A stretch of 64,000 nt of DNA from assembly GCA_951813565.1 (NCBI GenBank), contig OX638351.1:576001-640000 (forward strand), given 5' to 3'. The notes under the pieces were generated by a model. It saw only the letters and a program-made list of their open reading frames with translations, was not told the DNA's origin and searched no databases. The stretch's first letter is position 1. Each line of letters starts with the position of its first letter. A program made the position numbers and the translations under genes. This document shows, piece after piece, positions 8,838-64,000 of this stretch. Source of the DNA: an uncultured Poribacteria bacterium. GTDB lineage: Bacteria > Poribacteria > WGA-4E > WGA-3G.

Positions 8838-9815
8838 TTAGAATGGAAGCGGAATGCCAACTCGTTCAGCAACTGCTTTTAGCTGTTCCTGATGTGCTTC
8901 GCCAATCGGGATGCCGATTTCAGCCCATTCTCGTTCGCGCTCCCATTCTAAGCCTCCGGGGAGATCCGATCGGTCATAACCCGGTGCCGGTTGCATCTGT
9001 CGTGCATCATGGATATGTTGGTCAATTTCCGCTTTATACTCGTCAATCGGTCGGAACCGAGAAATGTCAATTGCTGCAATGAAAGCGCCTTGATTGGCGC
9101 CTTCCCAGATTGATGGGGGATCCGGTGGTTTATCAAATAGCCAGATGCCTGCCATAAACCCACCGAGTGCATGACTCACATGACTCAATCCTAACATCTT
9201 GAAGAACGCAGCGGGGCTCTGTTCAAACGCCTGTTCCAACGGCAGCCTTGCATCAATACCGGTTGCCATATCAACAACTATGGGCGGCTGGTTGCCTGCC
9301 GGAATCGCAAAACTCATCGGCGAAGCGCCAGTTGCGGTGGCAATCATACCGCCAGGACTGTGTCTAAAACGGTGGCAAGAGACCGCAAACCCAGCGCAAT
9401 CCACTTCAAGCGCGAGCCGTGAATACTTGCCAGCGCTCCCAAAATGGAAGTGATTCCGACTCGTTGCGGCACCCAGTCCCATCTCTTTGGCTTTTTTGAC
9501 CGCTGCCTTTGCAGCATGATACGAGGCAAAATGCCCCATACCGCCATCACCGTCGTAGACCGCGGTTGTCGGGGATTCATCAATGCAGCGGATGTTTGGA
9601 CATGGGTTTACTTTGCCATCAAGCATCATCCCCACATATCCCGGCGTTTGGCGCGTGCCATGACTGAACACGCCACGCAGATCAGTGAGAACTAACAGGT
9701 GTGCGATGTGCGCAGCATCCTCCTCAGATACCCCTGCCTTCTGGAAAACTTCACTGATGAAGCCTTGCATTGTCCCTGGCATAACGCGTATAAATTCTTT
9801 TGGTACTACATTCAT
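8838..9815 (-). CDS. Ldh_2 family (malate/L-lactate/L-sulfolactate-type) oxidoreductase
   Basis: DLRGVFSHG, DGDGGMGH, NHFHFG, VVDMAT, LPGGLE motifs; ATGA overlap with upstream stop. Confidence 0.85.
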   Translation of the reverse strand: MNVVPKEFIRVMPGTMQGFISEVFQKAGVSEEDAAHIAHLLVLTDLRGVFSHGTRQTPGYVGMMLDGKVNPCPNIRCIDESPTTAVYDGDGGMGHFASYHAAKAAVKKAKEMGLGAATSRNHFHFGSAGKYSRLALEVDCAGFAVSCHRFRHSPGGMIATATGASPMSFAIPAGNQPPIVVDMATGIDARLPLEQAFEQSPAAFFKMLGLSHVSHALGGFMAGIWLFDKPPDPPSIWEGANQGAFIAAIDISRFRPIDEYKAEIDQHIHDARQMQPAPGYDRSDLPGGLEWEREREWAEIGIPIGEAHQEQLKAVAERVGIPLPF

Positions 9816-10450
9816 ATTTTTAGTTCTGCCCATGTTGTAGTTAATTTGCTTGAAGGTTCAACTGCGTGCGGTTCAGCACCTTCAATGTCGCTTACATACT
9901 CACCCTCATAGAGTCGGATATGATCAATCCAGACATCCACTTTTTCTATACCCATGATGATACCTGCGCGCGAATTCACGTCATCCACAGGCATTTTAAA
10001 GGTGATGAAGAATTCTTTCCAGGTTTCGGACAGACTAATTGATTTTGCAGAGTATACATTCCACGGAGCACCTTGATGCATAATGCGCATAGTGACGTTT
10101 CTCGGTTTTTCACTTTTTGCCCACAGACTGTAAGTATAGGTAATATCTTCCTCAAGCGTGAAGGGTTGCTGATAGAGTTGTATGTGTCCTAATGCATTGC
10201 CAGCTTTATTGATTCTGATATAGGCAACATTTTTCCCGACAATCGGTTCTGCTTTATTACCTTCTGTTTGGAAGACTGCGGCAGCACTTTCGTGCGTCCA
10301 GTGATGCCATCCGTCAAGTTTTAGGTCGAAATCACCGTTTTTGAGGATGTTATCGGGGAGTTTTTGGGTGTACGCAAGTGTTGTAAATCCAAGCAGCCAA
10401 GCCAATACAAGGAAATAACTATAAATCGAAACGCTTTTAATTGTGTTCAT
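9812..10450 (-). CDS. Secreted CBM4/9-like carbohydrate-binding protein with C-terminal TW-x-x-LK motif
   Basis: Signal peptide from MNTIKS (10450); N-x-LKNGDF, YTYSLWAKS, VWIDHIRL; ends AVEPSSKLTTTWAELKI. Confidence 0.75.
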   Translation of the reverse strand: MNTIKSVSIYSYFLVLAWLLGFTTLAYTQKLPDNILKNGDFDLKLDGWHHWTHESAAAVFQTEGNKAEPIVGKNVAYIRINKAGNALGHIQLYQQPFTLEEDITYTYSLWAKSEKPRNVTMRIMHQGAPWNVYSAKSISLSETWKEFFITFKMPVDDVNSRAGIIMGIEKVDVWIDHIRLYEGEYVSDIEGAEPHAVEPSSKLTTTWAELKI

Positions 10451-10940
10451 CTTCACTTTTCCGCTCATGCTCTTTCTTACCTTCCTGGTCATGCTCACCT
10501 TCATGTTCTGAGTCATGTTCACCATGTTCTTCCCCATGACTATGTTCATCCTCGTCGACTTCGGGATGTGCTGTCCATCCGTCAAAGTCCGTGCTTGTTG
10601 CGATGAGTTGAACATCCTTTTTTTCACCGGATGCAAGATCAACCGAAAGTGTTGGACCAAGTTCTTTCGCGTTGGACAAGTGGACTTCAACCCTTACCTG
10701 TTTCAAGGTTTCGTCGGTGGTGTTTTCTATAGTGCCTTTAAAGGTATTGTTTTCTTGGTTGTAATTCATGATGAGTCGTACGCCATTTCTGACCTTATCG
10801 TAAGTTTCGTTCAGTGCAAGTTCAGTGCCTGATTCCTCTTTTTCGTTGTCAGTTGCCTGTTTTGCTGTCCTTGAACAACCGATAATAACAATTATCAACA
10901 AGACAACGATTGCTGCAAAAATACTATATATGTAATTCAT
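10437..10940 (-). CDS. Lipoprotein with Ig-like (FxLYD-like) domain and His/Glu-rich tail
   Basis: Lipobox IIGC; GTIENTT...VRVEVHL; tail EHSHGEEHGEHDSEHEGEH; upstream TTGACG-N17-TACAAT promoter. Confidence 0.65.
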   Translation of the reverse strand: MNYIYSIFAAIVVLLIIVIIGCSRTAKQATDNEKEESGTELALNETYDKVRNGVRLIMNYNQENNTFKGTIENTTDETLKQVRVEVHLSNAKELGPTLSVDLASGEKKDVQLIATSTDFDGWTAHPEVDEDEHSHGEEHGEHDSEHEGEHDQEGKKEHERKSEDEHN

Positions 10941-11013
10941 GGATGCGTTTCTCCTCAAAGAGAAGTATGTTCAATGTGAAAATTGTAGCACAAAAGAGAC
11001 AGAACGTCAAGAG

Positions 11014-11041
11014 AAAAGGGCAGACATTATGCCTGCCCTTT
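11014..11041 (-). terminator. Rho-independent terminator
   Basis: AAAGGGCAGGCATAATGTCTGCCCTTTT on the minus strand. Confidence 0.65.
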
Positions 11042-11152
11042 AAGATAGGATGCCGACAGCGCCCTGTTTTACTATGAGGTTCCCTCCGAGACCGTGACTA
11101 ATGCTTGCTACCTCCGACTTCGGGTTGAACTGTCCACCTGCTTAAAGTTTTT

Positions 11153-11468
11153 GGCTCTTGTAAAGAATGAGTGCTTTTTTCTTTATTTGTGCTATAGTAT
11201 AGTATATGGATTTTCCAATACTTTCTTTAATTGATGATGAAAGCGCGGAGGAATGGTTGCTAAACCATTTCCATCCCCAGGGTTTACACTGTCCACATTG
11301 CGATGTGAGCGTGGAGGAGGCACGCTATTTTAGAACAACAAAAACAAGTCGCCTAAAGGTTTACCGCTCGGGATATATCGCTATCTGTGAATTTGTTATT
11401 AATCTCAAATCTATTACTACTGAGTTTATATCAAAACTCGTCCAACGCACTCACTCATAACATGAGCC
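11153..11468 (+). mobile_element. Internally deleted IS1595-family element (MITE-like)
   Basis: Imperfect TIRs GGCTCTTGTAAAGAATGAGTGC / GGCTCATGTTATGAGTGAGTGC; ORF 11206-11460 has the N-terminal Zn ribbon (CPHC) fused to a C-terminal remnant, with no DDE core. Confidence 0.65.
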
Positions 11469-11478
11469 AATATACTTT

Positions 11479-12237
11479 TCATTCAGAACCTCCTATGTGG
11501 TAAGTTACTCTGAATGGGACCTCTACTCCTGATTCAAGTATCAGTTGTTTAGATTCCCTGAGGTGTTCAAGACGGTTCGCCACTACCTCAATATTTCCAG
11601 GGTGGATATCAATTCTATACATGAGTCTCAAAAGTGCCTCTGCCTCGGCAATTGTATCGTCAATTGTTAAGGTGCCATTATTACTGCGTCTGACATTTTC
11701 AACGAGAATATCCACGTCAGAATAATCACCGTATTGTTCTCGGAAGGCATCGTCAAGGCGTTGGTAAGCATATTTGGGATTACTAGCGAGATATAGGTTA
11801 TAATCCTCATATCCAGCTTTTACTACATCCATGTCGTAGGGCAGACTTTGATGTTCTTCCTGAACAATCGTCTCATCGGTCTCTATTCCTACCTCTAAAT
11901 CCTCCAAACTATTCTCTATATCTTCAGTAAAAGCCTCCAAAAACAAGGTAAATATATCAATGTCATCGCCAGGTTCAGATTGAAACTCCTTAACAAAGGA
12001 ATCGAAATCTTTACTTTTTATAGTAGTAATTGGGTCTGTAGGTTGAACGACTTCCGGTGAGGTCGTTTCTAACTGATCTGAAACCTTGGGAGTTGGGTTT
12101 AATGTAGAAGATTCTATTAGCCGTTCTTTAAAGCGTATCATGTCCCATTGCATATAAATAAAAAAAACAATGGAACAAGCGACTATCAAAATAGATGCTA
12201 CCAGAAATAGTTTGATTTTATATGATTTCATAAGCAT
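11479..12237 (-). CDS. Hypothetical N-terminally anchored acidic protein
   Basis: N-terminal TM segment; AGGAG RBS; helical C-terminal domain. Confidence 0.6.
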   Translation of the reverse strand: MLMKSYKIKLFLVASILIVACSIVFFIYMQWDMIRFKERLIESSTLNPTPKVSDQLETTSPEVVQPTDPITTIKSKDFDSFVKEFQSEPGDDIDIFTLFLEAFTEDIENSLEDLEVGIETDETIVQEEHQSLPYDMDVVKAGYEDYNLYLASNPKYAYQRLDDAFREQYGDYSDVDILVENVRRSNNGTLTIDDTIAEAEALLRLMYRIDIHPGNIEVVANRLEHLRESKQLILESGVEVPFRVTYHIGGSE

Positions 12238-12261
12238 TTTTCTACTCCTTACTTACCTTCG

Positions 12262-13074
12262 TTATTTTAGTAACTCTTTAATGGAAATGGGGGTCGTATG
12301 CTGGTCTCCGTACTTTTGGATTGCTTGGTTGATTTTTTCAAGGGAATCTTCCAGGCTTTTTATCTGATCCGCTTCCATTTCGGGAGCCGTATCTTTCAGA
12401 ATCTGCAGTTGTACTTCAAGGAACTCTCTGATATCTGAAAAAGGGAGAGATTCTGCAGCAAAGAGTTTAGACACAAGAGATACCCATTTTTCAAAGAGAG
12501 GATGCTCATTGTAGCCCCTCTTAGTCCCCAGTTTGACAAATTCGGCACGAGCGGCTTCTGGATCGGTGCGGATAAGTTCCTTGAAAACTTCTAATCGATC
12601 AGTATCGTTATTTGCTGTTAGTGCAGGTTCTTCGGTTTGTGTTCTATGCAGGTGAACCTCAGAGGGCATGGTTTTGAATTGTGTGAGTGCTGCCTTGTGG
12701 TGTTGTATTTGTTTCGCATACTTTTCTGCATCAATAGCGGTTAACATCCGGATTTCTAAGTCAGACAAACGCTTGATGTCAGAGAGATGTTGGGTGCCAT
12801 CTCGACTGAGGCGAAAGTAAAGGGGTACCCATTCTTTGGAGAGGATATGCTTGCCGAACAGTTTATTTGCAACGTTCTCAAGTTCTATGCCGGCAGCTTC
12901 TGGATCGCTACGTAAGAGATTTTGAAACGTTTTGAGGTGTTCCACCCAAAGCATTTCACTCACTAAATGGACATGTAAAACAGCGTTTTCTTTCGGGGGA
13001 CTTGGTTCGCTACAAGAAAGACATCCAAAACCACAAAAAGTCAAACACAACAAGAAGAACATTAACAACCGCAT
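12262..13074 (-). CDS. Hypothetical exported/lipoprotein with two helical DPEAA repeats
   Basis: AAGGAG RBS before MRLLM; Cys-rich signal ending CLSC; internal duplication LLRSDPEAA / LIRTDPEAA. Confidence 0.65.
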   Translation of the reverse strand: MRLLMFFLLCLTFCGFGCLSCSEPSPPKENAVLHVHLVSEMLWVEHLKTFQNLLRSDPEAAGIELENVANKLFGKHILSKEWVPLYFRLSRDGTQHLSDIKRLSDLEIRMLTAIDAEKYAKQIQHHKAALTQFKTMPSEVHLHRTQTEEPALTANNDTDRLEVFKELIRTDPEAARAEFVKLGTKRGYNEHPLFEKWVSLVSKLFAAESLPFSDIREFLEVQLQILKDTAPEMEADQIKSLEDSLEKINQAIQKYGDQHTTPISIKELLK

Positions 13075-13284
13075 CAGACTCTCCTTAGTAAAAAGGGTGA
13101 GGAACAGATACATGTATGTTATGGCCTCACCCAATTAAAATTGTTTTTCAACCGCCCCGATTAACTACATGTGAATGAGTGGGGAAGCGGATTCCAATGA
13201 AGTATAAGCTCAAACTCCATACAGATATAAAACTCAATCTCAATCTCATCACCAATTGGAATTGAGAATACGGGTACCCATTCG

Positions 13285-13554
13285 TTACAGCACCAATGCT
13301 GCCAGATCAACTGATACTGTTTTCCATAGTCCATCAGCATAGTCAGGATTATTGGTATGAAATGTTATGTCTTTGGGAGTGGGAATTTGTTCACTATCAA
13401 GCAGCAGACCTTCAAGATAACATTCAATTGCTTCTACGGCTTGCATCATGGCATCCTCAACCGTATCTCCGGCAGAGAAACATCCGGGTAAATCCGGAAC
13501 GGAAACTCCGTAACAACTCTCCGGATCTTTGTGGATAACAATAGGATAATGCAG
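13285..13554 (-). CDS. hicB: HicB-family antitoxin (N-terminal domain only; CTG start; absent from the ORF track)
   Basis: Manual translation (L/M)HYPIVIHKDPESCYGVSVPDLPGCFSAGDTVEDAMMQAVEAIECYLEGLLLDSEQIPTP...; in-frame TGA eight codons upstream. Confidence 0.75.
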   Translation of the reverse strand: MHYPIVIHKDPESCYGVSVPDLPGCFSAGDTVEDAMMQAVEAIECYLEGLLLDSEQIPTPKDITFHTNNPDYADGLWKTVSVDLAALVL

Positions 13555-13798
13555 GCCTCCGATGAATCCGTCCGATCATTGAAATAGACGTATATAATAC
13601 CTACATTCCGCACTTCGAATTTCCGATTTTCGATATTTATTTCTCAAACCTGCGTGGCACCTACATCGAGCAAGCAATTTCAGGTGAATTAGAGAAAAAG
13701 AAAAGTGACAAGTGGAATCTTAATTCACGGCACCAAATCTCTATTATCCGGTACGGATCCTTTCTTGACACGGGTTTGTCCTATAAATTTAAATTCTG

Positions 13799-14737
13799 TT
13801 AAAACAAGAACAAAGTGGAGGGTATAATGTCTAATGCGGCTAATTCTCTAGATAATGTTCCCTTCCAACCACCAGCTTTATCGAAAGGCACATAAACTAT
13901 GCCTTGAATATCTGATGGTAGTTCAACGCCTTCTTCGTGGAGAACACAAACACGTTCGCGACCCAAACCATGCAAAAAATAACCGAGTTCCAAGATGACG
14001 TTTTGTCGTGCGCGCGACTTTAGGTCGTCTTCATTATTTTTTGGTGCGCCAACATCATCGGCTGTGAGCAAAACGATTGCAAAAGCCGCTTCGTCAGCAT
14101 GTTCTTCAAACTTATCAATGATTGTTTGTCCTTTGCTTGGCTGCTCGTCAAGTATCGTTGCTGTCAATTTTAGGTTCTCAATGAACCTTGCGACCTTGTG
14201 TTTAGCTTCTCCATCATGTCCGTGTACGATAAAAATATTATAATCGGATATGCGCTCAGATATTGATTCATTATCGCACTGATCACTTTGAAGTGCTTTG
14301 GAAAAAGTTGCCAAAAACCCTCTAAATGCTCCAGCAGCGTCACCATCACTAGCCTGCAAATCGGCTATATAGTCTTCTAGGCATTCCTTCGGAATATTTT
14401 CAGCTCGGAACAAAGCCTTAAGTTCTTGCACTGCTCTCTCTTCTATGCCTTTGTTCCCTTGAGCTAAGAGAAAAATTGCAAAGGACAATGTGCCAATTCG
14501 GTAATAATTCCTCCGTGATTCTCCATCAGATCCTTCAAACCATTCGCTGGGGGGACCAACCACCCCTCCACCAACAATTCGTTCAGTTATTAATTCGTTG
14601 TAATCAGGAATTTTCAATTCAACTCGCGAAGCAACTTTACAAACGATTTTGTGTTCATCTTCATCTGGTTTTGCTGAGAATCGAGCAAAAGCAATCCCCA
14701 ACTCGAAATAGTTTCTTTTATCCTCAGATGAATACAT
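13799..14737 (-). CDS. TIR-like nucleotide-binding domain protein (Cap12/Pycsar effector-type TIR) with unknown N-terminal domain
   Basis: IFIVHGHD, ILDEQPSKGQTIIDKFE, FAIVLLTADD, RARQNVILELGYF, LPSDIQG. Confidence 0.85.
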   Translation of the reverse strand: MYSSEDKRNYFELGIAFARFSAKPDEDEHKIVCKVASRVELKIPDYNELITERIVGGGVVGPPSEWFEGSDGESRRNYYRIGTLSFAIFLLAQGNKGIEERAVQELKALFRAENIPKECLEDYIADLQASDGDAAGAFRGFLATFSKALQSDQCDNESISERISDYNIFIVHGHDGEAKHKVARFIENLKLTATILDEQPSKGQTIIDKFEEHADEAAFAIVLLTADDVGAPKNNEDDLKSRARQNVILELGYFLHGLGRERVCVLHEEGVELPSDIQGIVYVPFDKAGGWKGTLSRELAALDIIPSTLFLF

Positions 14738-14770
14738 AACAGATCGCCTCCTTAAGATTTAATAGCAATC

Positions 14771-14793
14771 AGGGCAGGTGATGAACCTGCCCT
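14771..14793 (-). terminator. Hairpin terminator after 5S rRNA
   Basis: AGGGCAGGTTCATCACCTGCCCT. Confidence 0.6.
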
Positions 14794-14802
14794 TGTATAG
14801 GA

Positions 14803-14922
14803 TTTCCGGCGACGACCTACTTTCCCGCGGGGTTGCCCCCGGAGTATCATCAGCGCTGAAGGGCTTAACTGCCGTGTTCGGAATGGGAACGGGTGTATCC
14901 CCTTCGCTATTGCCACCGGAAA
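14803..14922 (-). rRNA. rrf: 5S rRNA
   Basis: Conserved CCCGTTCCCATTCCGAACACGGCAGTTAAGC and GAAAGTAGGTCGTCGCCGG; complementary ends. Confidence 0.95.
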
Positions 14923-14981
14923 GGTGTCCAAAAATATTTGACAACTGTATAGGTATTGAGGAGTCGGTAGAGAAAAATAAA

Positions 14982-17980
<2,999 letters not shown>

Positions 17981-18011
17981 GGTGATATTTTTATTCTACC
18001 GATTTACCCTC

Positions 18012-18146: not shown

Positions 18147-18163
18147 TCGCGCATGTGGTATAA

Positions 18164-18785: not shown

Positions 18786-20193
18786 CGCAATAAGTAGTTT
18801 TGGACTTGCAAAAAGCCCTTAAGCGTTATGGAAATTTATACTTAATAGGGTATGAGAATTCGGAAAAGCACTAAACGGCGAAGACTAATTTCTAACTCTA
18901 ATCTGCGAGAACTTCTGCCCCTCCAACTCACATCGGTATAAAAGTTGAGCGCGCTTGATAGATACTTTGCAACGGCAGACAATTCTTCTAATCGTTTTGC
19001 CATTGTGATATTAGTGTGGTCCAGCTTGTCAAGACCTTATTCTTTAAGTTCTTCTGCCATCGTTGAGTGAGTCTTCATCTCATACTCTCATTGACAAACT
19101 TATCAAAAATGCTCTCAATGCTCCTATAGTTGTATTTATAGCACGCCTCTGCGACATATAGGGGCGTGTATTCAGTCCAATAGTGGTGATGACTTCCATA
19201 CCAAGCACGTTTGAGAAGTGACCAGAAGCCTTCAATCGTATTGGTATGGACATTACCGTCAACAAATTGTTCTTGATGATCAATGATATGGTGCTTCATC
19301 TCTTTACCGAGTGTGAGATAAGCCTTATACTCATCAGTCATCAACTGCGATTTATCTACTTTAACAACTTCGCGAATAAAATTTAAGATAGTCCGTCCCG
19401 TCAAATCTTTTGCGAGTCTTGCCACAACTTTCCCACCGCGTTCAATCGCTCCGATGATAGCATCTTTATCAGTGCCACGCCCACGCTTAGCAGGATCCCT
19501 GTCCTCTTTTTTGTTCGCTTTGCGAGGTTTACCCCCGACATAAGTTTCGTCAGCCTCTATGATACCTTGTAAGAGGATATTATCTTTAGCCATTTCAGCA
19601 CGGATACATGTTCCCATACGCCACGCAGTCTTTTGATCCAAGTCCAAATCTCTTGCCAACTGATGACTTGAAAGGCTCTTTTTAGCATTCATCATCAACG
19701 AGATAGCCAAAAACCACTTCTGAAGTGCTATCTTTGTCCCGTGAAACACCGTGCCACAAGTAACCTTGAAAGTAGCAGTGCAATCGTGGCATTGCAAGCG
19801 TCCGATGCGTCCCAATTCCGTTTCTGTTCGTCTTGCAGCGTTTGGGCAATCACAATGTGGACACTTCGGTTTACCCTTCCACCGAATACTCTCTAAATGT
19901 TCAATACAACTCTCTTGATCAGGGAATCGTTCCATCACTTTCAACAAATCCATCAGAAAACTCCTTTTTAGGAGTTGCTTTTTCTGACAGGTTTCTGATA
20001 CAATAACTAGATAAGACAGAATGCCAGAAAAGCAACTCGCTTTTTTGTGTTCAATTAGGGGGTTAACAGCCCTCTAATTTCTTATCTAAATTGTATCATA
20101 TTTTCACAATTAAAACAAGCGAAAAATGTAGTCTACACAAGGATTTAGAGCGATTTTTAAAATTTTGTTGCAAGTCCAAAACTACTTATTGCG
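18786..20193 (-). mobile_element. IS1595-family insertion sequence
   Basis: 26-bp perfect TIR CGCAATAAGTAGTTTTGGACTTGCAA; no clear TSD. Confidence 0.9.
19075..19953 (-). CDS. IS1595-family transposase
   Basis: CPHC..C..C Zn ribbon, EADETYVGG, MTDEY, HTNTIEGFWSLLKR. Confidence 0.93.
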   Translation of the reverse strand: MDLLKVMERFPDQESCIEHLESIRWKGKPKCPHCDCPNAARRTETELGRIGRLQCHDCTATFKVTCGTVFHGTKIALQKWFLAISLMMNAKKSLSSHQLARDLDLDQKTAWRMGTCIRAEMAKDNILLQGIIEADETYVGGKPRKANKKEDRDPAKRGRGTDKDAIIGAIERGGKVVARLAKDLTGRTILNFIREVVKVDKSQLMTDEYKAYLTLGKEMKHHIIDHQEQFVDGNVHTNTIEGFWSLLKRAWYGSHHHYWTEYTPLYVAEACYKYNYRSIESIFDKFVNESMR

Positions 20194-21377: not shown

Positions 21378-22302
21378 ACCTAAGTTGCTACCTATAAAAT
21401 ACTTCTAAATCCATGGGATTTGCTCTATAATGTTTTTATGAAATAAAACACAAGGAGAAACCCCATGGAATTAACCATTGTAGCAGTTTACACGATTTGT
21501 GACGATCTTTTAATTTCACTCGGTCATCAAACGCATCCACAAGCACAAATGACAGATGCTGAAGTGATGACAACTGCGATTATCGCAGCACAATATTTTG
21601 GAGGAAATCATCAAACCGCTTGCTGTATGTTAAAAATAAATGGATATATCCCAAATATGTTAGGACACTCCCGATACAATCGTAGACTTCATCGGATACC
21701 TCATTTATTTCAAATATTTTTTGAATATCTCGCAGAAATCTCTAAATCTAATAATCCGAATGGTATTTACGCGATTGACACCTATCCTGTTGCCGTGTGT
21801 GATAACATTCGGATTAGTCGGTGTCGTCTCTATCAAGGTGAAAAATGGCGTGGCAAAATCGCAAGTAAACGCCGTCACTTTTATGGTCTCAAAGTGCATC
21901 TAATGGTCACTGAAAGTGGACACATTGTTGAAGTTTTCTTCACCCCTGGCAAGTGGAACGATGTCAGAGGAATGCGATATTTTCCATTTGATTTGCCGCA
22001 AGGTTCTGTGGTGTATGCGGATAAAGCATATTGCAACTATGGTATTGAAGATGCGCTAAAGGAAGTAGGGATTACTTTCAAACCGCTTCGGAAGAAAAAC
22101 CTCAAGCGTCAGTTTCCACCTTGGGAAGTTTATCTGCAACATCTTCACAGAAAACGGGTTGAAGTGACAAATAGTTTGATTACACAACTATTACCGAAGT
22201 CAATACACGCAGTGACTGCGACAGGTTTTGAGTTGAAACTATTTTTGTTTATCATCGCAACGAATATAAGACAAATATATGGTGATAGGTAGCAACTTGG
22301 GT
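21378..22302 (+). mobile_element. IS982-family insertion sequence
   Basis: TIR ACCTAAGTTGCTACCTA / ACCCAAGTTGCTACCTA; 7-bp TSD TACTTTA. Confidence 0.9.
21465..22292 (+). CDS. IS982-family transposase
   Basis: MTDAEV, SRYNRR, AIDTYPVAVC, FYGLKVH, YADKAY, RKRVE. Confidence 0.9.
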   Translation: MELTIVAVYTICDDLLISLGHQTHPQAQMTDAEVMTTAIIAAQYFGGNHQTACCMLKINGYIPNMLGHSRYNRRLHRIPHLFQIFFEYLAEISKSNNPNGIYAIDTYPVAVCDNIRISRCRLYQGEKWRGKIASKRRHFYGLKVHLMVTESGHIVEVFFTPGKWNDVRGMRYFPFDLPQGSVVYADKAYCNYGIEDALKEVGITFKPLRKKNLKRQFPPWEVYLQHLHRKRVEVTNSLITQLLPKSIHAVTATGFELKLFLFIIATNIRQIYGDR

Positions 22303-48550: not shown

Positions 48551-49270
48551 TTATCTTACGGTTTTCAGTTGTCCCCAAGTTATCGTCAATTTCCCAAGGG
48601 GTTGAACCGGTGCGGGATCATCAAGTACTAATTCACCCGCCTCCTTCTGATGGTCAGATATCCGAAGCCCATCAACAACACAATTCGTTGGAAAATTAGG
48701 AGAGGGTGGAGAAGCATTGTTAATTTCAAAGGTTTCTGCGAAAACAACAGGGCCTTTAGTAGAAGCATCTTCCGCTTCCAGTTTGCCATCCAGATAGAGT
48801 TTCAAACCACCCGGTCCCCACGTTCCTGCCATGTGGTGATGTTCTCCTTTTTTCCAGTTAAGTGCGCCACTGTCCGCGTTGAACCAACTCCCCGCGCTTT
48901 TGATACGCATGCGAGCTTTTCCACCATTGTCAAATTGCAGGAAAACCGCATCAGTTCCACGCTTATAAGTCATGAACAGAAAAAGTTCACCTGTAACCGT
49001 TGAAGCATCAAACCCCATTGTTACCCATAACTCAACTGTTCCTTCATCAAGGTTAACAAACCTATCTTCTACCGGAAAGTGGATGACATCCCCCTGTTCT
49101 TCACTGACAAAACCGTTGCCAAATTTGCCGGGGACAAAATTGCCTCCATTAACAGTACCTCCCTCTTTTTCAACCTCTTCTTTACTTTCAAGGGCTGAAA
49201 AGAAAGTCTCTTTTGCCATTGCGACAGAAAAACAGAGCAATGTAATTACTATAACACATAATGTTTTCAT
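48551..49270 (-). CDS. Secreted LamG/concanavalin-like protein with C-terminal TW-x-x-LK motif
   Basis: Signal peptide; GKFG, GTVELW, HH.AGTW...LKLYLDG, VDGLRISD; ends PVQPLGKLTITWGQLKTVR. Confidence 0.85.
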   Translation of the reverse strand: MKTLCVIVITLLCFSVAMAKETFFSALESKEEVEKEGGTVNGGNFVPGKFGNGFVSEEQGDVIHFPVEDRFVNLDEGTVELWVTMGFDASTVTGELFLFMTYKRGTDAVFLQFDNGGKARMRIKSAGSWFNADSGALNWKKGEHHHMAGTWGPGGLKLYLDGKLEAEDASTKGPVVFAETFEINNASPPSPNFPTNCVVDGLRISDHQKEAGELVLDDPAPVQPLGKLTITWGQLKTVR

Positions 49271-52568: not shown

Positions 52569-54027
52569 CAATACCTTCGCCAAAAATAATTGAATAAATA
52601 GGGCGTCTGTCCTAAAGTTATAACAGTTAACCATAACTTAGAAAGGACAATCGCCCATGTCAGAAATTATAGCACTGTTTACTGTTCTTAATCCATGTTT
52701 ATCCGCAACGATGACGCGGCAGTTATGCCGAGTTGTATTCGCACTACTTGCGATGAGTGGTCGGGTAACCATGTTAAATATCTCTCGTTGGACAACCCAA
52801 GGCGGTAGCTACCGCACCATACAACGCTTTTTCAACACTGTTATGCCTTGGACGACGATGTGTTGGATGTTTTTTCGCACGCATCTGTTTGATCGTGAAA
52901 GTGACTACATCCTCACAGGAGACGAAGTGGTTGTGCCAAAAGCAGGAAAATCTACTTATGGTTTATCTCGTTTCTTTTCTTCATTGTATGGCAAAGCGGT
53001 CCCCGGTTTGTCGTTTTTAGCCGTGTCCTTAGTGAGTGTCAACCGAAGGCGTTCATACCCGATGGTTATGGAGCAAATCGTGCGTGGCACCTCATCGTCA
53101 AATCAAGGAGTTTGTGCTTCCGAACATCAGGACAACACCGAGACAGCAACACCAAGACATAAATGCGGGCGTCCAAAGGGAAGCCGAAACCGAAACAAAG
53201 ACGATGTCATGCTCAGCGATGTGTTGAAGCAACTTCAAACGATGGTCAAGGCGTTGCTAAAACTGGTTGGCAACTTGATCCCACTCCGTTATCTTGTGCT
53301 TGATGGATACTTCGGACATAATAATGCGCTACAAATGACAAAGCAATGTGGACTACATCTCATTTCAAAACTACGCATAGATGCTGCGTTGTATCTGCCA
53401 CCGACGACACCTTACGCCGGACAAGGGCGCCCACGCATCTACGGAGAGCGTTTCACCCCACGACAGATTGACCCTAAGTATTGTGTTTCTGCCGACACAC
53501 AGGGAAACCTGAGAACCGAAGTGTATCAAATGAACTTACGCCACAAAAAGTTCACAGACTTCCTAAATGTAGTTTGCGTTCTCAAAACGAACTTGACGAC
53601 GAAACAACAAGCACACGTTTTACTGTTCAGTTCTGATTTAGCGTTAGACGCTGAAAAACTGATTGATTATTATTCCCTCCGTTTTCAAATCGAGTTCAAC
53701 TTCCGCGACGCAAAGCAATATTGGGGATTACAAGATTTTATGAATGTCAACAAGATACCAGTAAACAATGCAGCGAACCTCTCAATGTTTATGGTGAATG
53801 TGAGTGCTAAACTCATAGATACGCTCCGTTGTAAAAATACTGCGTCCAGTGTTTTAGACCTAAAAGCACGCTACCGAGGTTTGAAGTATTTACACGAAAC
53901 ATTAAAAATACTTCCGCAAAAACCTGAACCTATTGTTATTCAACAAATCGCACAACATTTGGGAACAATCGGTGCTATTCATCACACACAACCAAAACTG
54001 AACCCCGGATAATTGGCGAAGGTATTG
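52569..54027 (+). mobile_element. IS701/IS4-like DDE insertion sequence
   Basis: 15-bp TIR CAATACCTTCGCCAA; 6-bp TSD TTAATT. Confidence 0.88.
52657..54012 (+). CDS. DDE transposase (IS701/IS4-like)
   Basis: GDEVV..K.GK, LDGYF, GRPR.YG, Y..RFQIEFNFRDAKQ. Confidence 0.88.
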   Translation: MSEIIALFTVLNPCLSATMTRQLCRVVFALLAMSGRVTMLNISRWTTQGGSYRTIQRFFNTVMPWTTMCWMFFRTHLFDRESDYILTGDEVVVPKAGKSTYGLSRFFSSLYGKAVPGLSFLAVSLVSVNRRRSYPMVMEQIVRGTSSSNQGVCASEHQDNTETATPRHKCGRPKGSRNRNKDDVMLSDVLKQLQTMVKALLKLVGNLIPLRYLVLDGYFGHNNALQMTKQCGLHLISKLRIDAALYLPPTTPYAGQGRPRIYGERFTPRQIDPKYCVSADTQGNLRTEVYQMNLRHKKFTDFLNVVCVLKTNLTTKQQAHVLLFSSDLALDAEKLIDYYSLRFQIEFNFRDAKQYWGLQDFMNVNKIPVNNAANLSMFMVNVSAKLIDTLRCKNTASSVLDLKARYRGLKYLHETLKILPQKPEPIVIQQIAQHLGTIGAIHHTQPKLNPG

Positions 54028-55332: not shown

Positions 55333-55429
55333 AGTGAGGGAAGCATCAAGTAAGCATGTCATCTATTATGAATGCTTTATGCAAGTTTCAAACGAGGAAC
55401 AAAGGACTCGGGGCGACTTTTTTATTTGG

Positions 55430-56437: not shown

Positions 56438-56548
56438 GGATTTCAGTTTTCTCGGTTAGGTGAGAACGAAGGGAGTAGACGCACAAGTATCTAAATAAAA
56501 TGAAACCGCGTTTTAAATGTGGTGATTACTCCCTGTTCTCCTAATAAC

Positions 56549-57190: not shown

Positions 57191-57224
57191 TAGTAATCCT
57201 CCATGTTAGTAAATATAAATTAAA

Positions 57225-57842
57225 TTATTGAATCCAACGAATACCTTTATTAACCAGAATTTGTCTTAACTCTTGTGTACACCGGAAAATCCAGATTTTA
57301 ACAGTGCCATCTTTCCGATTAAGAATACGGGAAATTTCGGCGACACTACACCCTTCAAGGTGTCTTAATATCCACGCGATGCGGTGGTTCGGTTTTGTGA
57401 CCTGCTCAAGAGCACTTTCCAATATTTCTTGTGCCTCTTGCGCTATTATATGTTTGTCAGGTCCAGGTCGTCTATCCTCGTATTCATTTAGCGGCAGATC
57501 ATCCTGCTCTTCAAGGGTAAGGAGGGACTCGCGTATCCGATCTCTTCTTCGAATCGCATCAATAATAGTATTACGGGCAACTATATTCAACCATGCTTGG
57601 AAACTACCCTTTTCGGGGTCCCATTTATCTTTGTCGAGTTTCTGCCAGACTTTAGTAAAAACATCTAAACTAACTTCTTCAGTATCCTGATGGTCCCCGA
57701 GCATTCTATAAGCCTTGCTATAGACCCAATTATAGTGCTTCTCAAATAACTGACTAAATGCAGCCTCGTCACCTTGTTTAGCTTGCGTAGCTAAATAAAT
57801 GTCTTCAGTAGCCGATAGGTCATTTTTCGCTTGGCGCGCCAT
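57225..57842 (-). CDS. ECF sigma-70 factor
   Basis: GDEAAF..L, D.F.KVW, F.AWL..VARN.IID..RR, L...EG.S..EI......GTVK. Confidence 0.9.
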   Translation of the reverse strand: MARQAKNDLSATEDIYLATQAKQGDEAAFSQLFEKHYNWVYSKAYRMLGDHQDTEEVSLDVFTKVWQKLDKDKWDPEKGSFQAWLNIVARNTIIDAIRRRDRIRESLLTLEEQDDLPLNEYEDRRPGPDKHIIAQEAQEILESALEQVTKPNHRIAWILRHLEGCSVAEISRILNRKDGTVKIWIFRCTQELRQILVNKGIRWIQ

Positions 57843-58100
57843 TAGATAAGCCCTCCTCTGTCCTCCTTTAGCCAAAGGATTAATCAAACCTATTTCGTTT
57901 TATTAAGTATAAGAACGAAACTTTTTCTTGTTACGTTTCAGAAAATTATAAAATCTTCCTATAGTAAAAATAAAAAGGAAATTGGCACATAAGAGGATAT
58001 TTATGGAATAATGAAATGTAAGAAATATGGAATGTTTTAAAGTATAGTGTTTTTAAACTATATCATATAACGAAAATTGAATCAATAAGTTTAATGAGTA

Positions 58101-59255
58101 ATACCAAATTAACGTAAGTCATATTGTGTTTTCCATTTTGCAAATCCACTGAAAACCGACATGTTCTTGCACCTTCTTTCTGTTTTTGGAGAACCACTGA
58201 CACCTTTTCACAAGCACTTCTTCAAGGTCTGATAGCGTTCTAAAAACTTTATTGGCAACCACCTCTCGCAACAGAGGCCATAGCCGTTCGGCAGGTTGAA
58301 GTTCCGGTGTATACGGCGGTAAAAAAAATAACTCAATACCTTGTGGGACATCTAAATCCTTACCCGTGTGAAAACCGGCACGATCTAATAAGAGGATTAT
58401 CTGTTTCTTGCCTTCCGGGTTTACATCCCGAGCAAACTCTGCCAACGCAAGGTTCATCACTTCAACACTCACACTCGGCATCAGAAGCCAATAAGTCTCA
58501 CCCGTCTGTGGACGGACAAAACCGAAACCATAAAGCCATTTATATGACGGACACACCGAGGCTGTCGGTCTTTCACCTTGCTTCGCCCAGACACGCCGAT
58601 GAACCGGCAATAATCCCACGCGTGCCTCGTCTTCTGCCCAGACTTCTACCGATTTCTCCGGGTGCTGACCTTCAAGCTCAGCTACCCGCTCCCTAAGTTT
58701 TTTTTTAATGCTTGCTGCTCATCTGGTGTTGCAGCTGACTGATGTTGAGGACGAGGTGTTTGTAAAGTATAACCGAGGCGCTTGAGATATTTCCAACCTG
58801 ACACATTACTGACAGGACGCTTGAGTGTCTCGGATATCCACGCAGCCACCTTCGGACCTGTCCACAGACCGCCATCAGCAGGAGGCGAAGAAAGTGCAGC
58901 TTCAAGGGCTGCTTGCTGTGTTTCATCCAAAATACGCTTGCGTCCATTGTTTTTGCGTTTGTCTCGCATAGCTGCTTCGCCTTCAGCGTTGTAGCGTTTG
59001 AGCAACTTCCGAACCCAGTCCGGCGTGCATCCTACAATCTCAGCAACTTCGCGAGGTGTTCGCGGATGTGTGGTATCAGCAAGAAGCCAAATAATATGCC
59101 AGTGCGTCCGTTCAATAGGACATTCACATTCAAGATACCTTTGTTTCAGAACTTCTACTGAAAAGTGAGGGGAAACCCCATGTTTTTTATTTTTCATCTG
59201 ATCACAATAACACATCCAAAAAATAAATGCAAGAACAATCATATTAATATGGTAT
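58101..59255 (-). mobile_element. IS630-family insertion sequence
   Basis: Imperfect TIRs ATACCAAATTAACGTAA / ATACCATATTAATATGA; ends approximate. Confidence 0.8.
58119..59197 (-). CDS. IS630 transposase, two ORFs joined by a -1 frameshift at an A9 run (58698-58706)
   Basis: HTH ORF from MKNKK; the -1 frame gives KKLRERV...WAEDEARVGL, then LDRAGFH and LPPYTPELQPAERLW. Confidence 0.88.
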
Positions 59256-59257
59256 AA

Positions 59258-59392
59258 GGGTGTGTAAAGTTTTTGGCACGAATATTTCTCAACTCTTGTA
59301 GAAGGGCTTTGTCCGCCCGATTTATCAGAGTTCAAACCCTTCCTACAAGAAAGATGACATGGTTAATGCCAAAAAACAAAACTTACACACCC
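59258..59392. repeat. Short MITE-like element with internal REP-like pair
   Basis: GGGTGTGTAAAGTTTT / AAAACTTACACACCC ends; core TTGTAGAAGGGCTTTGTCCGCCCGAT..AAACCCTTCCTACAAGA also at ~62313-62382 and partly at ~58-90. Confidence 0.6.
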
Positions 59393-59561
59393 AAATCTTC
59401 CCAAACACTTGACTCCTAAATATAAAACGATATATTATAAATCACATGAGTTCGTTATAACAATTTATGGAAACTGGTGCGGTTATGAGAATAGGATTCA
59501 AGCATTAAGAACTGCATATCTCGGACACCGAACTCACATTATAAATAGATTAGGAATTAAT

Positions 59562-60290
59562 ATGCAAACCCAACGAATTTGTCTTTGGTCGGGACCACGA
59601 AACATCTCAACAGCATTAATGTATGCTTTCGGACAACGAAGCGATACCGAAATCATTGATGAGCCATTATATGCACACTATCTTCATGTCACAGGGGCAA
59701 CGCACCCTGGCCGAGAGGACGTTATGACATCCATGCAAACTGATGGTGCTGCTGTCATTCGTGATGTTATTCTTGGACCTTGTACAAAGTCAGTCCTCTT
59801 TATGAAACAGATGGCACATCATCTCGTCGACATTAATGCATCTTTCATGCGGAAAACGGTAAATATATTGCTAATCCGTGATCCAAAGGAAATGCTTCTG
59901 TCTTTAACGAAAGTTATCGGAATTCCGACACTGAAAGATACTGGTTTAAAGATGCAAGCCGAATTGTTGTCAGAATTAAGAGAGATGGGACAATCGCCCC
60001 CCATTTTGGATGCGCGGGAATTGTTGCTTGCACCGAGAGATGTACTGTCAATATTGTGTGATCGGTTAGATCTTCCGTTTGAGGAATCCATGTTGTCATG
60101 GCCGCGTGGTGGACATCCTTCGGATGGTATTTGGGCACCGCATTGGTATCATAATGTGCATCGGAGTGCAGGTTTTGTGTCATATCAACCGAAACGTGAA
60201 CCGTTTCCTGAAGCGTTGGAAGGTGTTTTATCAGAGTGTTTACCGTATTATGATATGCTACGTGCCGATGCAATTTGTAGCGATTCGTGA
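59562..60290 (+). CDS. Sulfotransferase-like protein (Sulfotransfer_5 type)
   Basis: WSGPRNISTALMY.F.QR.D, DEP.YA.YL, KQM.HH, LIRDP, ML.W..G....DG.WA..WY. Confidence 0.8.
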   Translation: MQTQRICLWSGPRNISTALMYAFGQRSDTEIIDEPLYAHYLHVTGATHPGREDVMTSMQTDGAAVIRDVILGPCTKSVLFMKQMAHHLVDINASFMRKTVNILLIRDPKEMLLSLTKVIGIPTLKDTGLKMQAELLSELREMGQSPPILDARELLLAPRDVLSILCDRLDLPFEESMLSWPRGGHPSDGIWAPHWYHNVHRSAGFVSYQPKREPFPEALEGVLSECLPYYDMLRADAICSDS

Positions 60291-60309
60291 AGGCGTCTAC
60301 ATTAAAGCA

Positions 60310-60804
60310 TTAAGTTTCATAACGCTGGGTTTGCTGGATAAACGATTCCAGACTATACCCTCGTTCAGGTGAACAAGCAATTCCGAAACTTGCTACCCCT
60401 AATATAGCATCTGCGAAAACTATCGTCCAATTAGGCGTTGTTGAAACTGAAAGTCCCAAGAAATCAAGAAAAGTAAAAAGAAAGTTGTCACAACCGCAAT
60501 CCGTTACAGGCAGTTCTTTCCACAACACATTTGCCAACGCAACCGAAAAAATCAAAAAAAGGAGCGAGGCAAGTATACCTGCACCACGCGAAAAATAGCC
60601 GATGCTTAACGCAATTCCCAGCGCTACCTCTGCCGAAACCAACAGATAACTTGTTGGTTTTACCAGTGCTGTCGGTAACATTTGATAACCAGCTACGGTT
60701 GTCACAAAAGCACTGAAATTAGTAAGTTTAGCGATACCCGCAAAAAAGAGAATTGATCCAAGGATTATTCTGATAGCTGTTACCAACAGTGATAAAGTCG
60801 TCAT
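60310..60804 (-). CDS. MauE/DoxX family redox-associated membrane protein
   Basis: R..LG..L.FAG..KL, AEV.LG, DCGC; ATGA overlap with rhodanese stop. Confidence 0.82.
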   Translation of the reverse strand: MTTLSLLVTAIRIILGSILFFAGIAKLTNFSAFVTTVAGYQMLPTALVKPTSYLLVSAEVALGIALSIGYFSRGAGILASLLFLIFSVALANVLWKELPVTDCGCDNFLFTFLDFLGLSVSTTPNWTIVFADAILGVASFGIACSPERGYSLESFIQQTQRYET

Positions 60805-61307
60805 TCTGTTACTAATGGATATCCCAATGCTTGCCAACCTCTCAATCCACGCGAAAAAAACTTTACATTTTGATAACCGTGCGCTAAAAGAATATTCATC
60901 AACTGGTAAGCGTTCGGACATTCAACGCTTCCGCAATACGTAATCAAGAGCATTTTTTTGTCTGTTGGCAAAATAGATAAGTTTTGTTTTGCTCGGTTGA
61001 TGGGAACATTTACGGCATCTGGGATATGTCCTCGTCTGAAGCTGGCTGCAGAACGAGCATCCACGAAAACTGCCCCTTTTTGTTGCCATATCTGATAGAC
61101 AAGCGGAAAATCAACTTGCAGGGTAGAATCGCTACGTGTTTGAAAGTTGGAAGAGAAAAGTCCAAAACCATCTGCACCCCAGAGTGTTAAGGCACCGAAT
61201 GCGATCCAAATACTAACAATCAGCATTTCCTTAATAATCTGCTGTAATGTTTTTCGTTCAGACACATTTGATATGTCACGTTCGGTTTGTTTGGGATAGC
61301 TAAACAT
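60801..61307 (-). CDS. Rhodanese-like domain protein
   Basis: FVDAR....F..GHIP.AVN.P, YC....C, G...W...GYP. Confidence 0.88.
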   Translation of the reverse strand: MFSYPKQTERDISNVSERKTLQQIIKEMLIVSIWIAFGALTLWGADGFGLFSSNFQTRSDSTLQVDFPLVYQIWQQKGAVFVDARSAASFRRGHIPDAVNVPINRAKQNLSILPTDKKMLLITYCGSVECPNAYQLMNILLAHGYQNVKFFSRGLRGWQALGYPLVTE

Positions 61308-62005
61308 TATCTTCTCTTAAGTTGTGCCCAAGTTGATGTTACTTTTACTTCTGGAGAAACGTTTAATCCTGAAATTGTGAATGAATCAATCCAACCTTTT
61401 CCAACCCATTCGTTTGCGATAGTAATACCTTCTACAACAAATCCAAGGATATCAATTCTATTGAAGTTTGCGTCTCGGAATTTTGCGCGAAATTCGCCAT
61501 CAGCGAACAGTAGAAAATTACCTGAGTTAAAATGTAACCTCATCTCTGTCAAGCTCTCGGTGTCCCACCGCACACGAGGTTCCCGAGACAATCGAATCTG
61601 AAACGGATGACTACTACCTTTGCCATCAAAACGTCGAGCTCTAATCTCATCAAGAAAAAACACATAAAAAAACGGGTCTTCTTCGGAGGTATCAGGGAAA
61701 CGCCGCCCTACACAGAAACCAAATCGGAGCTTGTCAACACCAAAATCCTTAATCGTAACTGTAAAATCTCGATAAGGAGCGGGAAATGCAATAAGTTGGT
61801 AGAGATCGTATTGAACTTCCCAATCTCGATTAACTTCAACGCGTAAAAAACCTTCTTCTACCTTCCATACATTATCGTTACCCACGGTGTGCCACGCGTC
61901 CGAATTCTCGGAATCAAAATCGTCGTGCCAGATCTCCGCGGATGTAGAAATGATGCCACCGACAGAGAAAAATATGATTATCAAAATTATGGAAATGGTT
62001 CGCAT
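61307..62005 (-). CDS. Secreted hypothetical protein with C-terminal TW-x-x-LK motif
   Basis: Signal peptide from MRTIS; W.DDF; ends VSPEVKVTSTWAQLKRR; paralog of 63516 gene. Confidence 0.75.
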   Translation of the reverse strand: MRTISIILIIIFFSVGGIISTSAEIWHDDFDSENSDAWHTVGNDNVWKVEEGFLRVEVNRDWEVQYDLYQLIAFPAPYRDFTVTIKDFGVDKLRFGFCVGRRFPDTSEEDPFFYVFFLDEIRARRFDGKGSSHPFQIRLSREPRVRWDTESLTEMRLHFNSGNFLLFADGEFRAKFRDANFNRIDILGFVVEGITIANEWVGKGWIDSFTISGLNVSPEVKVTSTWAQLKRR

Positions 62006-62069
62006 CGTTTTTCTGTTTGGCATGAAGTATAGAAGACTCCGTTTTTTCGGACTATATGCGGTAAAACTA

Positions 62070-62724
62070 ACGTGAGTTTGATAAATCCCGTAGGGAATCA
62101 ACACCGAATGCGCCTACGGCATTCGGTGGGGTAGAACGGAATGGACAATAAAAACAGACCGTAAAGAGAGGTTGTTGAGCTATTTGAGGACGATATTTCC
62201 GAAAAAATAAGTGAAACCCAACTCTTTAGGACTCTCAAAACGGTTGAATTGTTGGGTTTCGCTTCGCTCTACCCCATAAGTGTCAACTTAAGAAAAAATG
62301 CTGTATTTTCTCTTGTGGGAGGGCTTTGTCCGCCCGATATAATATAGCATCAGAAATCGGGGTTGAAAACCCTCCCACAAGAGAAAATCTGGTAATTATG
62401 TGCTTAAGTTTACACCCGCCAAATGCCAAAAAGCGCATTTGGCATTGATTTGGCAGCATGCCGGACGGGGAATGCCAAAGGGCATTCGGACCCGGTGAAT
62501 GACTAAAGACGAATGCGCTTGGTAGAATACGCTTTTGGTATTCTACATGATTCGCCATGATTCATACCGTTGATTTCTTGATTTGGCGCATGCTGCGTTG
62601 ATTTAGCTGAATCATGCGGAATACCAAAAGCGTATTCCGCCAAAAGGCATTCATAGCGTTGATTGGGTTTCGCTTCGCTCTACCCAACGGACATCTATAT
62701 TTATTCTAATTATCAAGCTCACGT
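62070..62724. mobile_element. Composite MITE (IS982-like ends) with nested elements
   Basis: TIR ACGTGAGTTTGATAA / TTATCAAGCTCACGT; 8-bp TSD TAAAACTA; inner IR GTGTCAACTTAAG(62280)/CTTAAGTTTACAC(62415). Confidence 0.8.
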
Positions 62725-62751
62725 TAAAACTAACAACAATTATGTGTTGTG

Positions 62752-63495
62752 TCAATTGATCTTTATACAATCGTACCACCGTAGTGTCCGCTTTCCTTTT
62801 CGACTCAACACTCCGGGTTTTCGTTCAACAGGGGAACCAAAGTCACGATCTTTCTGCCGCAAGACGTTCCAGTCTGGTGGAAACCATGCTCTCAGCGTTT
62901 TACAGTTTACCTCAAGATTTTCACCTTCCCATCCACCGGTTTTATAATACATCGGGCAGATCCACCGTTCCCTCCCCCGAGCATACTGCCGCCATCCCAT
63001 CACAGAGGCTTGTGATCGGATAATGTTGCCATCTCGCCAATGTCGTTCAATCCCACTCCATGGGTAACCTGTTGTCCCAGTGCCACGATTAATTTCACTC
63101 CACCCGAGGTCATCATGAAGTGTGATATAGGAGACGTTTGTGCCCCAAGGTGTTTGATCACTGGCAAAACCCCACTTTTGCCGCCGGTACCAATGTAACG
63201 CACCTCTAATATTTGACTTGGATACAACGGCATTCTCAATAGTTTCTATAATGTCAAAAAATCCTCTGTTATTATAAGGGTTATGCACTCCCTCACAGAG
63301 TGTTAAGGAGTTCACTTCAGGACCGAACCATTTTCCGTTTTTACCGGGGGTTCTATAATATGATCCCGATGCCGCAGGCGCAGCGCGCTCGCTCGGATTC
63401 AACTTCGCCTTTGCAAATGTGCTCCAGAACGCCACGCCTAAAACTGCTAATAGCAAGAAAGCATTAAAAACCAGATCTAAATTCTTCCGCAACAT
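62752..63495 (-). CDS. Secreted hypothetical protein
   Basis: Signal-like MLRKN..AFLLLAVLGVAFWSTFAKA; Trp/Gly-rich body; ends LSRKGKRTLRWYDCIKIN. Confidence 0.6.
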   Translation of the reverse strand: MLRKNLDLVFNAFLLLAVLGVAFWSTFAKAKLNPSERAAPAASGSYYRTPGKNGKWFGPEVNSLTLCEGVHNPYNNRGFFDIIETIENAVVSKSNIRGALHWYRRQKWGFASDQTPWGTNVSYITLHDDLGWSEINRGTGTTGYPWSGIERHWRDGNIIRSQASVMGWRQYARGRERWICPMYYKTGGWEGENLEVNCKTLRAWFPPDWNVLRQKDRDFGSPVERKPGVLSRKGKRTLRWYDCIKIN

Positions 63496-63515
63496 TATTT
63501 TTTTTATTTTTAGGG

Positions 63516-64000
63516 CTATTCTCGTTTCAGATGTCCCCATGTTGTTGTTAATTTCCGTTTTGGTGATACTGGAAGTCCAGAAATAGTAATTTTATCAACC
63601 CATGCTTCGCCTATGTTCGCCATATCAGTAACATACCCAACGAGAACAAAACCGATAATGTCCATTTTCGGTAAGTTCGCGTCCCTAAAATCCATGCGCG
63701 ATTCGCCATCACCGAACAGCTGAAATCTGCCCCCATCAAAGTGGAGCACCATCTCGTTGAGGGCATCTGTGCCCCAGCGTTTGCCGGGACCGAGAAACAC
63801 CTTACCATCTCTTGATGCCTGCATATCATTCGTGAAAAATAGGTAATAGCCTATCTCCTCTATCTCCGCATCGTCATTGAAGAAATGTTTTCCAAGTGCT
63901 ATGCCGAATTTAATATCCCCTGCTGCGCCGATATTATCAATCTTAATTGTAATGTTATCGTAAGGTCCTTGGAAGGCAGTAAATTGGTAGAGTTCAAATA
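63516..64000 (-). CDS. Partial (5' end outside window) paralog of 61307 protein with C-terminal TW-x-x-LK motif
   Basis: Frame open to the window edge (FELYQFTAFQGPY.. aligns with YDLYQLIAFPAPY); ends VSPKRKLTTTWGHLKRE. Confidence 0.75.
   Translation of the reverse strand, partial: FELYQFTAFQGPYDNITIKIDNIGAAGDIKFGIALGKHFFNDDAEIEEIGYYLFFTNDMQASRDGKVFLGPGKRWGTDALNEMVLHFDGGRFQLFGDGESRMDFRDANLPKMDIIGFVLVGYVTDMANIGEAWVDKITISGLPVSPKRKLTTTWGHLKRE

Follow-up and report, generated by a model that had tools for sequence, protein, structure and literature searches.

The question raised by the stretch of DNA analysed here, a window of 64,000 nucleotides from an uncultured Poribacteria bacterium (assembly GCA_951813565.1, contig OX638351.1, positions 576,001 to 640,000), is what purpose is served by a short peptide with which several of its exported proteins end, and by which machinery it is read. 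The peptide is likely to be a miniature sorting signal for a type IX secretion system (T9SS) that lacks the motor, carried by about 160 mostly small signal-peptide proteins of unrelated folds, and we give this reading a probability of roughly 0.6. The link between the peptide, or tail, and the T9SS is indirect and is drawn from comparisons of sequences.

An initial annotation of the window had noted four genes that share a motif one to three residues before the stop. A six-frame scan of the window gave exactly four matches, all on the minus strand, with stops at 9812, 48551, 61307 and 63516; the conserved Lys is followed by 1, 3, 2 and 2 residues, respectively. The genes and their tails are as follows.

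9812..10450, minus strand: tail-bearing gene 1, with a predicted signal peptide, a CBM4/9 domain (Pfam CBM_4_9) and the tail; 212 residues
9812..9865, minus strand: tail of gene 1 with stop, AVEPSSKLTTTWAELKI
48551..49270, minus strand: tail-bearing gene 2, with a predicted signal peptide, a LamG domain (Pfam Laminin_G_3) and the tail; 239 residues
48551..48610, minus strand: tail of gene 2 with stop, PVQPLGKLTITWGQLKTVR
61307..62023, minus strand: tail-bearing gene 3, with a predicted signal peptide, a 3-keto-disaccharide-hydrolase-like body and the tail
61307..61360, minus strand: tail of gene 3 with stop, VSPEVKVTSTWAQLKRR
63516..64000, minus strand: tail-bearing gene 4, which extends about 200 bases beyond the window end; 227 residues, predicted signal peptide, homologue of gene 3
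63516..63569, minus strand: tail of gene 4 with stop, VSPKRKLTTTWGHLKRE

The start of gene 1 is most likely the ATG at 10450, and gene 4 is full-length in the genome, with a signal-peptide-like N-terminus. The Pfam matches bear out the first assignments of gene 1 (CBM4/9-like) and gene 2 (LamG). The body of gene 3, which has no Pfam match, was grouped with Poribacteria 3-keto-disaccharide hydrolase-like clusters by an Atlas lead. Atlas taxa and the names given to homologues both place the organism in Poribacteria. Because genes 3 and 4 are homologous (41% identity over 211 residues), the window holds three body families, all of beta-sandwich lectin-like folds, so that the diversity of bodies claimed at first is limited within the window and is seen in full only over the genome.

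Distribution of the tail in the genome

The census covered the single 5.43-Mb contig that contains the window, with 4,267 called genes. A position-blind regular expression gave 139 matches in 123,784 open frames, 136 of them no more than 10 residues from a stop. A hidden Markov model (HMM) seeded from the terminal matches gave 149 matches at 14 bits or more, of which 146 were terminal, with no match among reversed decoys; at 12 bits it gave 153 matches (149 terminal) and three decoys. Of the called genes, 164 finish with the core W[GAS]x[LIVMF]K, against 2.35 expected from its internal rate. A chance origin of the terminal motif is excluded. The consensus of the peptide is [LT]-[AP]-V-[ED]-P-x-x-K-L-x-T-T-W-[GA]-x-[LI]-K.

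By a heuristic of our own rather than SignalP, a signal-like start was called in 129 of 143 tail genes (about 90%), a count that omits the six of 149 tails lying outside gene calls, compared with 1,133 of 4,118 other genes (27%). Nine tail genes without a signal call are shorter than 200 residues and fragment-like, and one low-scoring match, in an anti-sigma-like protein, is probably a false tail. A strict lipobox was found in none of 141 tail proteins, compared with 134 of 830 other exported proteins, which extends to the whole genome the earlier remark that the lipoproteins of the window lack the motif.

The bodies of the tail proteins fall into 38 clusters, and Pfam searches with 38 chosen tail proteins returned LamG, PD40 propellers, LDL-receptor repeats, CBM9, F5/8, NPCBM, ankyrin, beta-helix, and LTD with immunoglobulin (Ig)-like domains. 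It is therefore scarcely credible that the motif is a strand belonging to a single fold or a relic of a repeated DNA element, although 72 of the 149 bodies belong to one LamG-like cluster and the Val and Gly codons are somewhat skewed. Every synonymous codon is used and the DNA beyond the stop varies, so that conservation acts at the protein level and a repeated DNA element is rejected; a structural strand is largely refuted by the unrelated folds and by the position of the tail outside the modelled fold of gene 2, described below.

The motif is thus neither scattered at random nor independent of a signal peptide, it is not an integral strand of one fold, and it matches no Pfam or NCBIfam model. 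Its initial description as a portable C-terminal tag on exported proteins is upheld by its terminal position and by the signal-like starts, and such a tag would presumably sort or anchor the proteins that carry it.

Sequence and structure of the tail

In leave-one-out patterns applied to this genome, the Lys is present in 132 of 132 tails and is never Arg, the Trp is present in 132 of 134, and the residue after the Trp is solely Gly, Ala or Ser. Across the phylum, the strict motif closes 97 of the 105 full-length homologues of gene 2, and Arg replaces the Lys in five of the 105. In the AlphaFold2 model of gene 2 the LamG body is of high confidence, and the last 17 residues (predicted local distance difference test, pLDDT, below 50) lie outside the fold, with a helix at WGQLKT. 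The predicted tail helix is 6-9 residues long, and the mean net charge of the tails is +2.3. The first view that the tag has no transmembrane helix holds for all 164 tails, in which the highest hydropathy over 15 residues within the last 40 was 1.39.

A generic amphipathic basic helix that binds the membrane or lipopolysaccharide, or that provides its Lys for a covalent bond with the cell wall in the manner of Braun's lipoprotein, would agree with the net charge, with a short predicted helix containing Trp, and with the Lys that is never Arg in this genome. A helix of this length is short for a membrane anchor, however, the position after the Trp is restricted to three small residues, and the Lys is not terminal and is replaced by Arg in the five gene 2 homologues. 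Moreover, the link to T9SS cargo's C-terminal domain (CTD), described in the next section, would be left unexplained. We regard this explanation as very improbable.

Searches of Pfam and NCBIfam, including TIGR04183 and PF18962, matched none of the four window tails, and the same was true of 37 Poribacteria tails (Pfam) and 78 other tails (NCBIfam). Nothing below an expectation value of 0.26 was obtained from a sequence search of the PDB with profiles of both tail forms (the second is described under Taxonomic range). An Atlas search with the tail alone gave short unnamed clusters only. In the 1.84-billion library 524 representatives match, many of them fragments, and among the best 150, 142 end in the motif. 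The tag is apparently unnamed: no published description was found in the literature searched, which did not extend to supplements and subscription papers, where a prior mention is possible. In the available part of PMC11285876, nothing bears on the tail.

Physical link to the type A CTD

The system nearest to the tail is the type A CTD of the T9SS (TIGR04183, PF18962; FlgD_ig-like PF13860 here), which operates with SprA/Sov, PorV and PorU. This genome has 31 TIGR04183 matches, one of which represents the long form of the signal within the window itself.

3549..6149, minus strand: context gene for an 866-residue exported metalloprotease-like protein, whose metalloprotease region (HExxH) is MXAN_6640-like and whose C-terminus is a T9SS type A sorting domain (TIGR04183; score 32.3 bits, cut-off 23)

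In four proteins of this genome the peptide stands directly before a type A CTD, and a search of the phylum seeded with three tail-CTD junctions found the same arrangement in 28 of 30 loci; hhalign aligned tail and junction with a probability of 96.5. The two signals also replace each other on homologous bodies. A body of LDL-receptor repeats is followed by the tail in one gene and by a dockerin and CTD in another that is 42% identical, and in both of the longer homologues found (2/2) of the single-copy Ig-like tail protein of the Ignavibacteria type, the Ig-like domain stands directly before Por_Secre_tail. Two lipoprotein homologues of one tail protein lack the tail. Moreover, the signals divide by size, as 146 of 149 tail proteins have at most 450 residues and all 27 CTD-pattern proteins have at least 416. 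The first impression that the motif matches no known sorting system therefore stands insofar as the tail is outside the T9SS CTD families and matches no Pfam or NCBIfam model, but it has to be amended because of the physical connection between tail and type A CTD.

In a model of tail and CTD fused, the CTD part resembles FlgD and PorU chains, and the peptide forms an unpacked linker before the first CTD strand (pLDDT about 48-57, compared with about 90 for the CTD; the alignment of 30 sequences is shallow). A second rival explanation is that the tail is a detached processing linker of the CTD, recognized only by a PorU-like sortase, in proteins that reach the surface by another route. The peptide does occupy the region separating body from CTD, in which the cleavage sites of the T9SS are located, and C25 peptidases with His and Cys motifs occur in all five tail-rich genomes tested. 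The small residue and Val at the start of the tail also resemble the PT/GI cleavage consensus given in the available part of PMC11969387. Against this explanation, most type A CTDs here are preceded not by the tail peptide but by a different, conserved, helical-looking segment of about 45 residues (in L245, for example, this segment follows a dockerin-like domain). In addition, conservation of the Trp is stricter among free tails than among fused ones, and no second export route was found tied to the tail, although type II secretion was not searched for. A linker of this kind is quite unlikely.

Co-occurrence with T9SS genes

It was suggested at first that no machine for the tag is evident in the window. 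This is correct for the window, as SprA-, PorV- and PorU-like genes are encoded outside it, but not for the genome, which has a divergent SprA-like gene of 2,167 residues, 19 PorV-family matches (six above the PorV-family cut-off) and three C25 peptidases that have the His and Cys motifs. Neither GldM nor GldN was found in this genome (GldL and GldK were not searched for), and GldN was found in none of the four genomes searched for it. In the available part of PMC3909097, Poribacteria are reported to have TIGR04183 domains and no structural genes for a T9SS; the tail motif is not mentioned there.

Of 65 genomes tested, 59 have true terminal tails; a SprA-like match is present in every one of these and GldM in none. 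The remaining six contain internal or spurious pattern hits only: four of them, with an internal hit, have no SprA, and in two SprA and GldM are both present. In a sample of Bacteroidota the tail was found in 26 of 151 genomes, and these 26 were compared with 54 of the 125 tail-negative genomes. GldM is present in none of the 26 tail-positive genomes and in 16 of the 54 tail-negative genomes, and PorV-family barrels are present in all 26 (5-21 copies) and in 41 of the 54, respectively. No p-value is attached to this co-occurrence because the genomes are kin and many are incomplete.

Some PorV-family barrels are fused to other domains, namely to an Ig-like and a SPOR domain and to a lytic transglycosylase domain (L249 and L250; genome contig 2471143-2473155 and 739377-741035, respectively). 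Many PorV-family barrel genes (L001, L043, L201-L230) are immediately preceded by a large exported gene with a CTD-like strand at its end, which suggests that the two form dedicated cargo-barrel pairs.

Taxonomic range

The supposition that the tail is lineage-specific is not supported, since at least seven further named groups have a related tail. Every one of the 121 Poribacteria genomes searched gave matches (19 to at least 67 scored copies per genome), and in one further small phylum 10 of 10 genomes match. For the related form, TWGxIKAL[YF]R, a DNA pattern was scanned over 6 of the 64 parts of the genome collection; 118 of 130 matches lie no more than 8 residues from the stop, and 50 of 127 loci were carried on to whole-genome searches. 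By record titles, these tails belong to Eisenbacteria, Krumholzibacteria, Latescibacteria, Fermentibacteria, Zixibacteria, Calditrichia, Ignavibacteria and others, and the profiles of the Poribacteria and related forms have the core TWGxIK in common.

The copy number is in the tens in Eisenbacteria, Krumholzibacteria, Latescibacteria and Fermentibacteria and is one in Ignavibacteria, Zixibacteria and Calditrichia. The single-copy protein of the Ignavibacteria type has about 135 residues, with a signal peptide, one Ig-like domain and a nearly invariant tail (e.g. locus L107:1495-1929; also L100 and L231-L242), and the neighbour of its gene is usually what we take to be a Maf-like gene. Zixibacteria have the same tail on a different small body.

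In a SprA-negative bin titled Patescibacteria (L128, L129; G163), two signal-peptide proteins have TWGAIKALYR near the N-terminus. Mimicry, transfer or the mis-binning of a contig could account for this.

Neighbouring genes in the window

A lipoprotein-like gene at 10437-10970 (minus strand), with a His/Glu-rich C-terminal stretch, overlaps tail gene 1 at its start. At 62752-63540 (minus strand), in the interval from tail gene 3 to tail gene 4, lies a gene for an exported protein that has no tail and belongs to no Pfam or NCBIfam family. Four genes were judged by eye to be transposase-like (19075-19953, 21465-22292, 52657-54012 and 58119-59335).

Proposed mechanism

If the tail is a T9SS signal, sorting would start with Sec export into the periplasm, as predicted from the signal-like N-termini. 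The body would then fold and leave the tail outside as a short Thr-capped helix, as in the model of gene 2. The face formed by W, the small residue, [LI] and K would probably be recognized by some general component of the SprA translocon, with a PorV-family barrel as the likeliest candidate, and the outer membrane would be crossed through SprA. Finally, a PorU-like C25 peptidase may cut near the small-residue-Val-Glu at the tail start, to release or anchor the body; this is the weakest step. The observed size split could reflect a division in which small single-domain cargo takes the tail and large cargo the full CTD.

Several observations weigh against this reading. Known CTDs, even short ones of three strands, bind PorV through a beta-sheet and motifs B, D and E according to the available part of PMC11969387, and the tail has none of these features. 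Pro precedes the Val in 29% of tails, which is a poor fit to cleavage there, and in the junction forms the Trp is usually Leu or Phe. SprA and PorV of this genome are below the equivalog cut-offs (155.7 of 200 and 91-100 of 250, respectively). The distance from tail genes to T9SS genes is at chance level, with 3 of 18 within 3 kb (p 0.29) and 7 of 18 within 6 kb (p 0.06-0.12), and a quick tree of the barrels (35 rows after trimming) singled out none that is tail-specific. The co-occurrence with SprA and without GldM is not independent, as the lineages are related, and 25 Bacteroidota genomes with PorV-family barrels and without GldM have no tail match, so that a motor-less T9SS needs no detectable tail. 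An adjacent barrel at tail genes is not found beyond chance. When the best-conserved PorV-family barrel was modelled together with the tail, the score was 0.00 (mark 0.32), but the controls did not fold, so that this outcome speaks neither for nor against the reading.

The main rival is that the tail is not an export signal but a docking peptide, which after Sec export clips small lectin-like proteins to an abundant scaffold or carrier (e.g. a CTD-bearing protein or a surface layer) and thereby keeps them in the envelope or carries them as passengers. The near-invariant Trp, small residue and Lys would suit a protein pocket, the tail is free of the fold in the model, and the exclusion of lipid anchoring from tail proteins would be expected if docking is the alternative anchor. 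The motif near the N-terminus of the two proteins of the SprA-negative Patescibacteria bin also favours docking. No scaffold was found, however, the peptide is not packed on the CTD in the fused model (with the shallow alignment noted above), and the replacement of the tail by a CTD on homologous bodies would be left unexplained. We consider docking unlikely.

The preferred reading of the tail as a T9SS signal accommodates this replacement. The tag is real, widespread and outside every CTD family, yet it likely works like one. A broader proposal is made only tentatively, with the odds slightly against it: a helix of 20 residues may define a class of T9SS signals of a motor-less type IX machine in at least eight bacterial groups, serving small cargo while the CTD serves large cargo, and the single conserved copy of the Ignavibacteria type may be a working part or regulator of that machine.

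In a dominant sponge symbiont the tag is carried by about 4% of called genes, and in several uncultured phyla by tens of genes. With so many genes tagged, the surface or secreted proteome of these bacteria would be definable from sequence alone. A true T9SS signal of this size would be far shorter than the short CTDs in the available part of PMC11969387 and must be read differently, and this reading suggests that a T9SS can operate without the known motor. Cultured Ignavibacteria (Melioribacter, Rosettibacter), with their single copy, open the question to bench testing.

Comparison with known sorting systems

In the LPXTG/sortase, PEP-CTERM/exosortase and GlyGly-CTERM/rhombosortase systems, a signature is followed by a transmembrane helix and then by a basic cluster. 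The tail shares with these signals its shortness, its C-terminal place, its basic end and its occurrence on many unrelated exported proteins, and differs from them in having neither a transmembrane helix nor an NCBIfam match.

Within the T9SS, the type B CTD (TIGR04131) is a signal class read through a dedicated PorP/SprF-type barrel. A second signal class read through a barrel would be a parallel to the tail, and many barrels here sit behind a large exported gene; unlike type B, tail genes have no adjacent barrel beyond chance, and the sequences do not match. The tail also departs from the classical T9SS in being seen only where GldM is undetected (GldL and GldK were not searched for).

That T9SS signals can shrink is indicated by the short CTDs of Prevotella intermedia, which according to the available part of PMC11969387 have 40-55 residues in three beta-strands, keep motifs B, D and E and are cleaved at a PT/GI consensus that resembles the small-residue-Val start of the tail. 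The tail has neither the three strands nor these motifs.

The closest comparison is with the type A CTD. This domain is a seven-strand sandwich of 70-90 residues with motifs B, D and E, whereas the tail consists of about 20 residues with one short helix, lacks these motifs and has no HMM match. Like the type A CTD, however, the tail is a portable C-terminal signal on unrelated bodies that start with a signal peptide; it occupies the same position, sometimes in tandem with the CTD, and swaps with it on homologous bodies; and in the genomes tested it is found only together with SprA-like genes.

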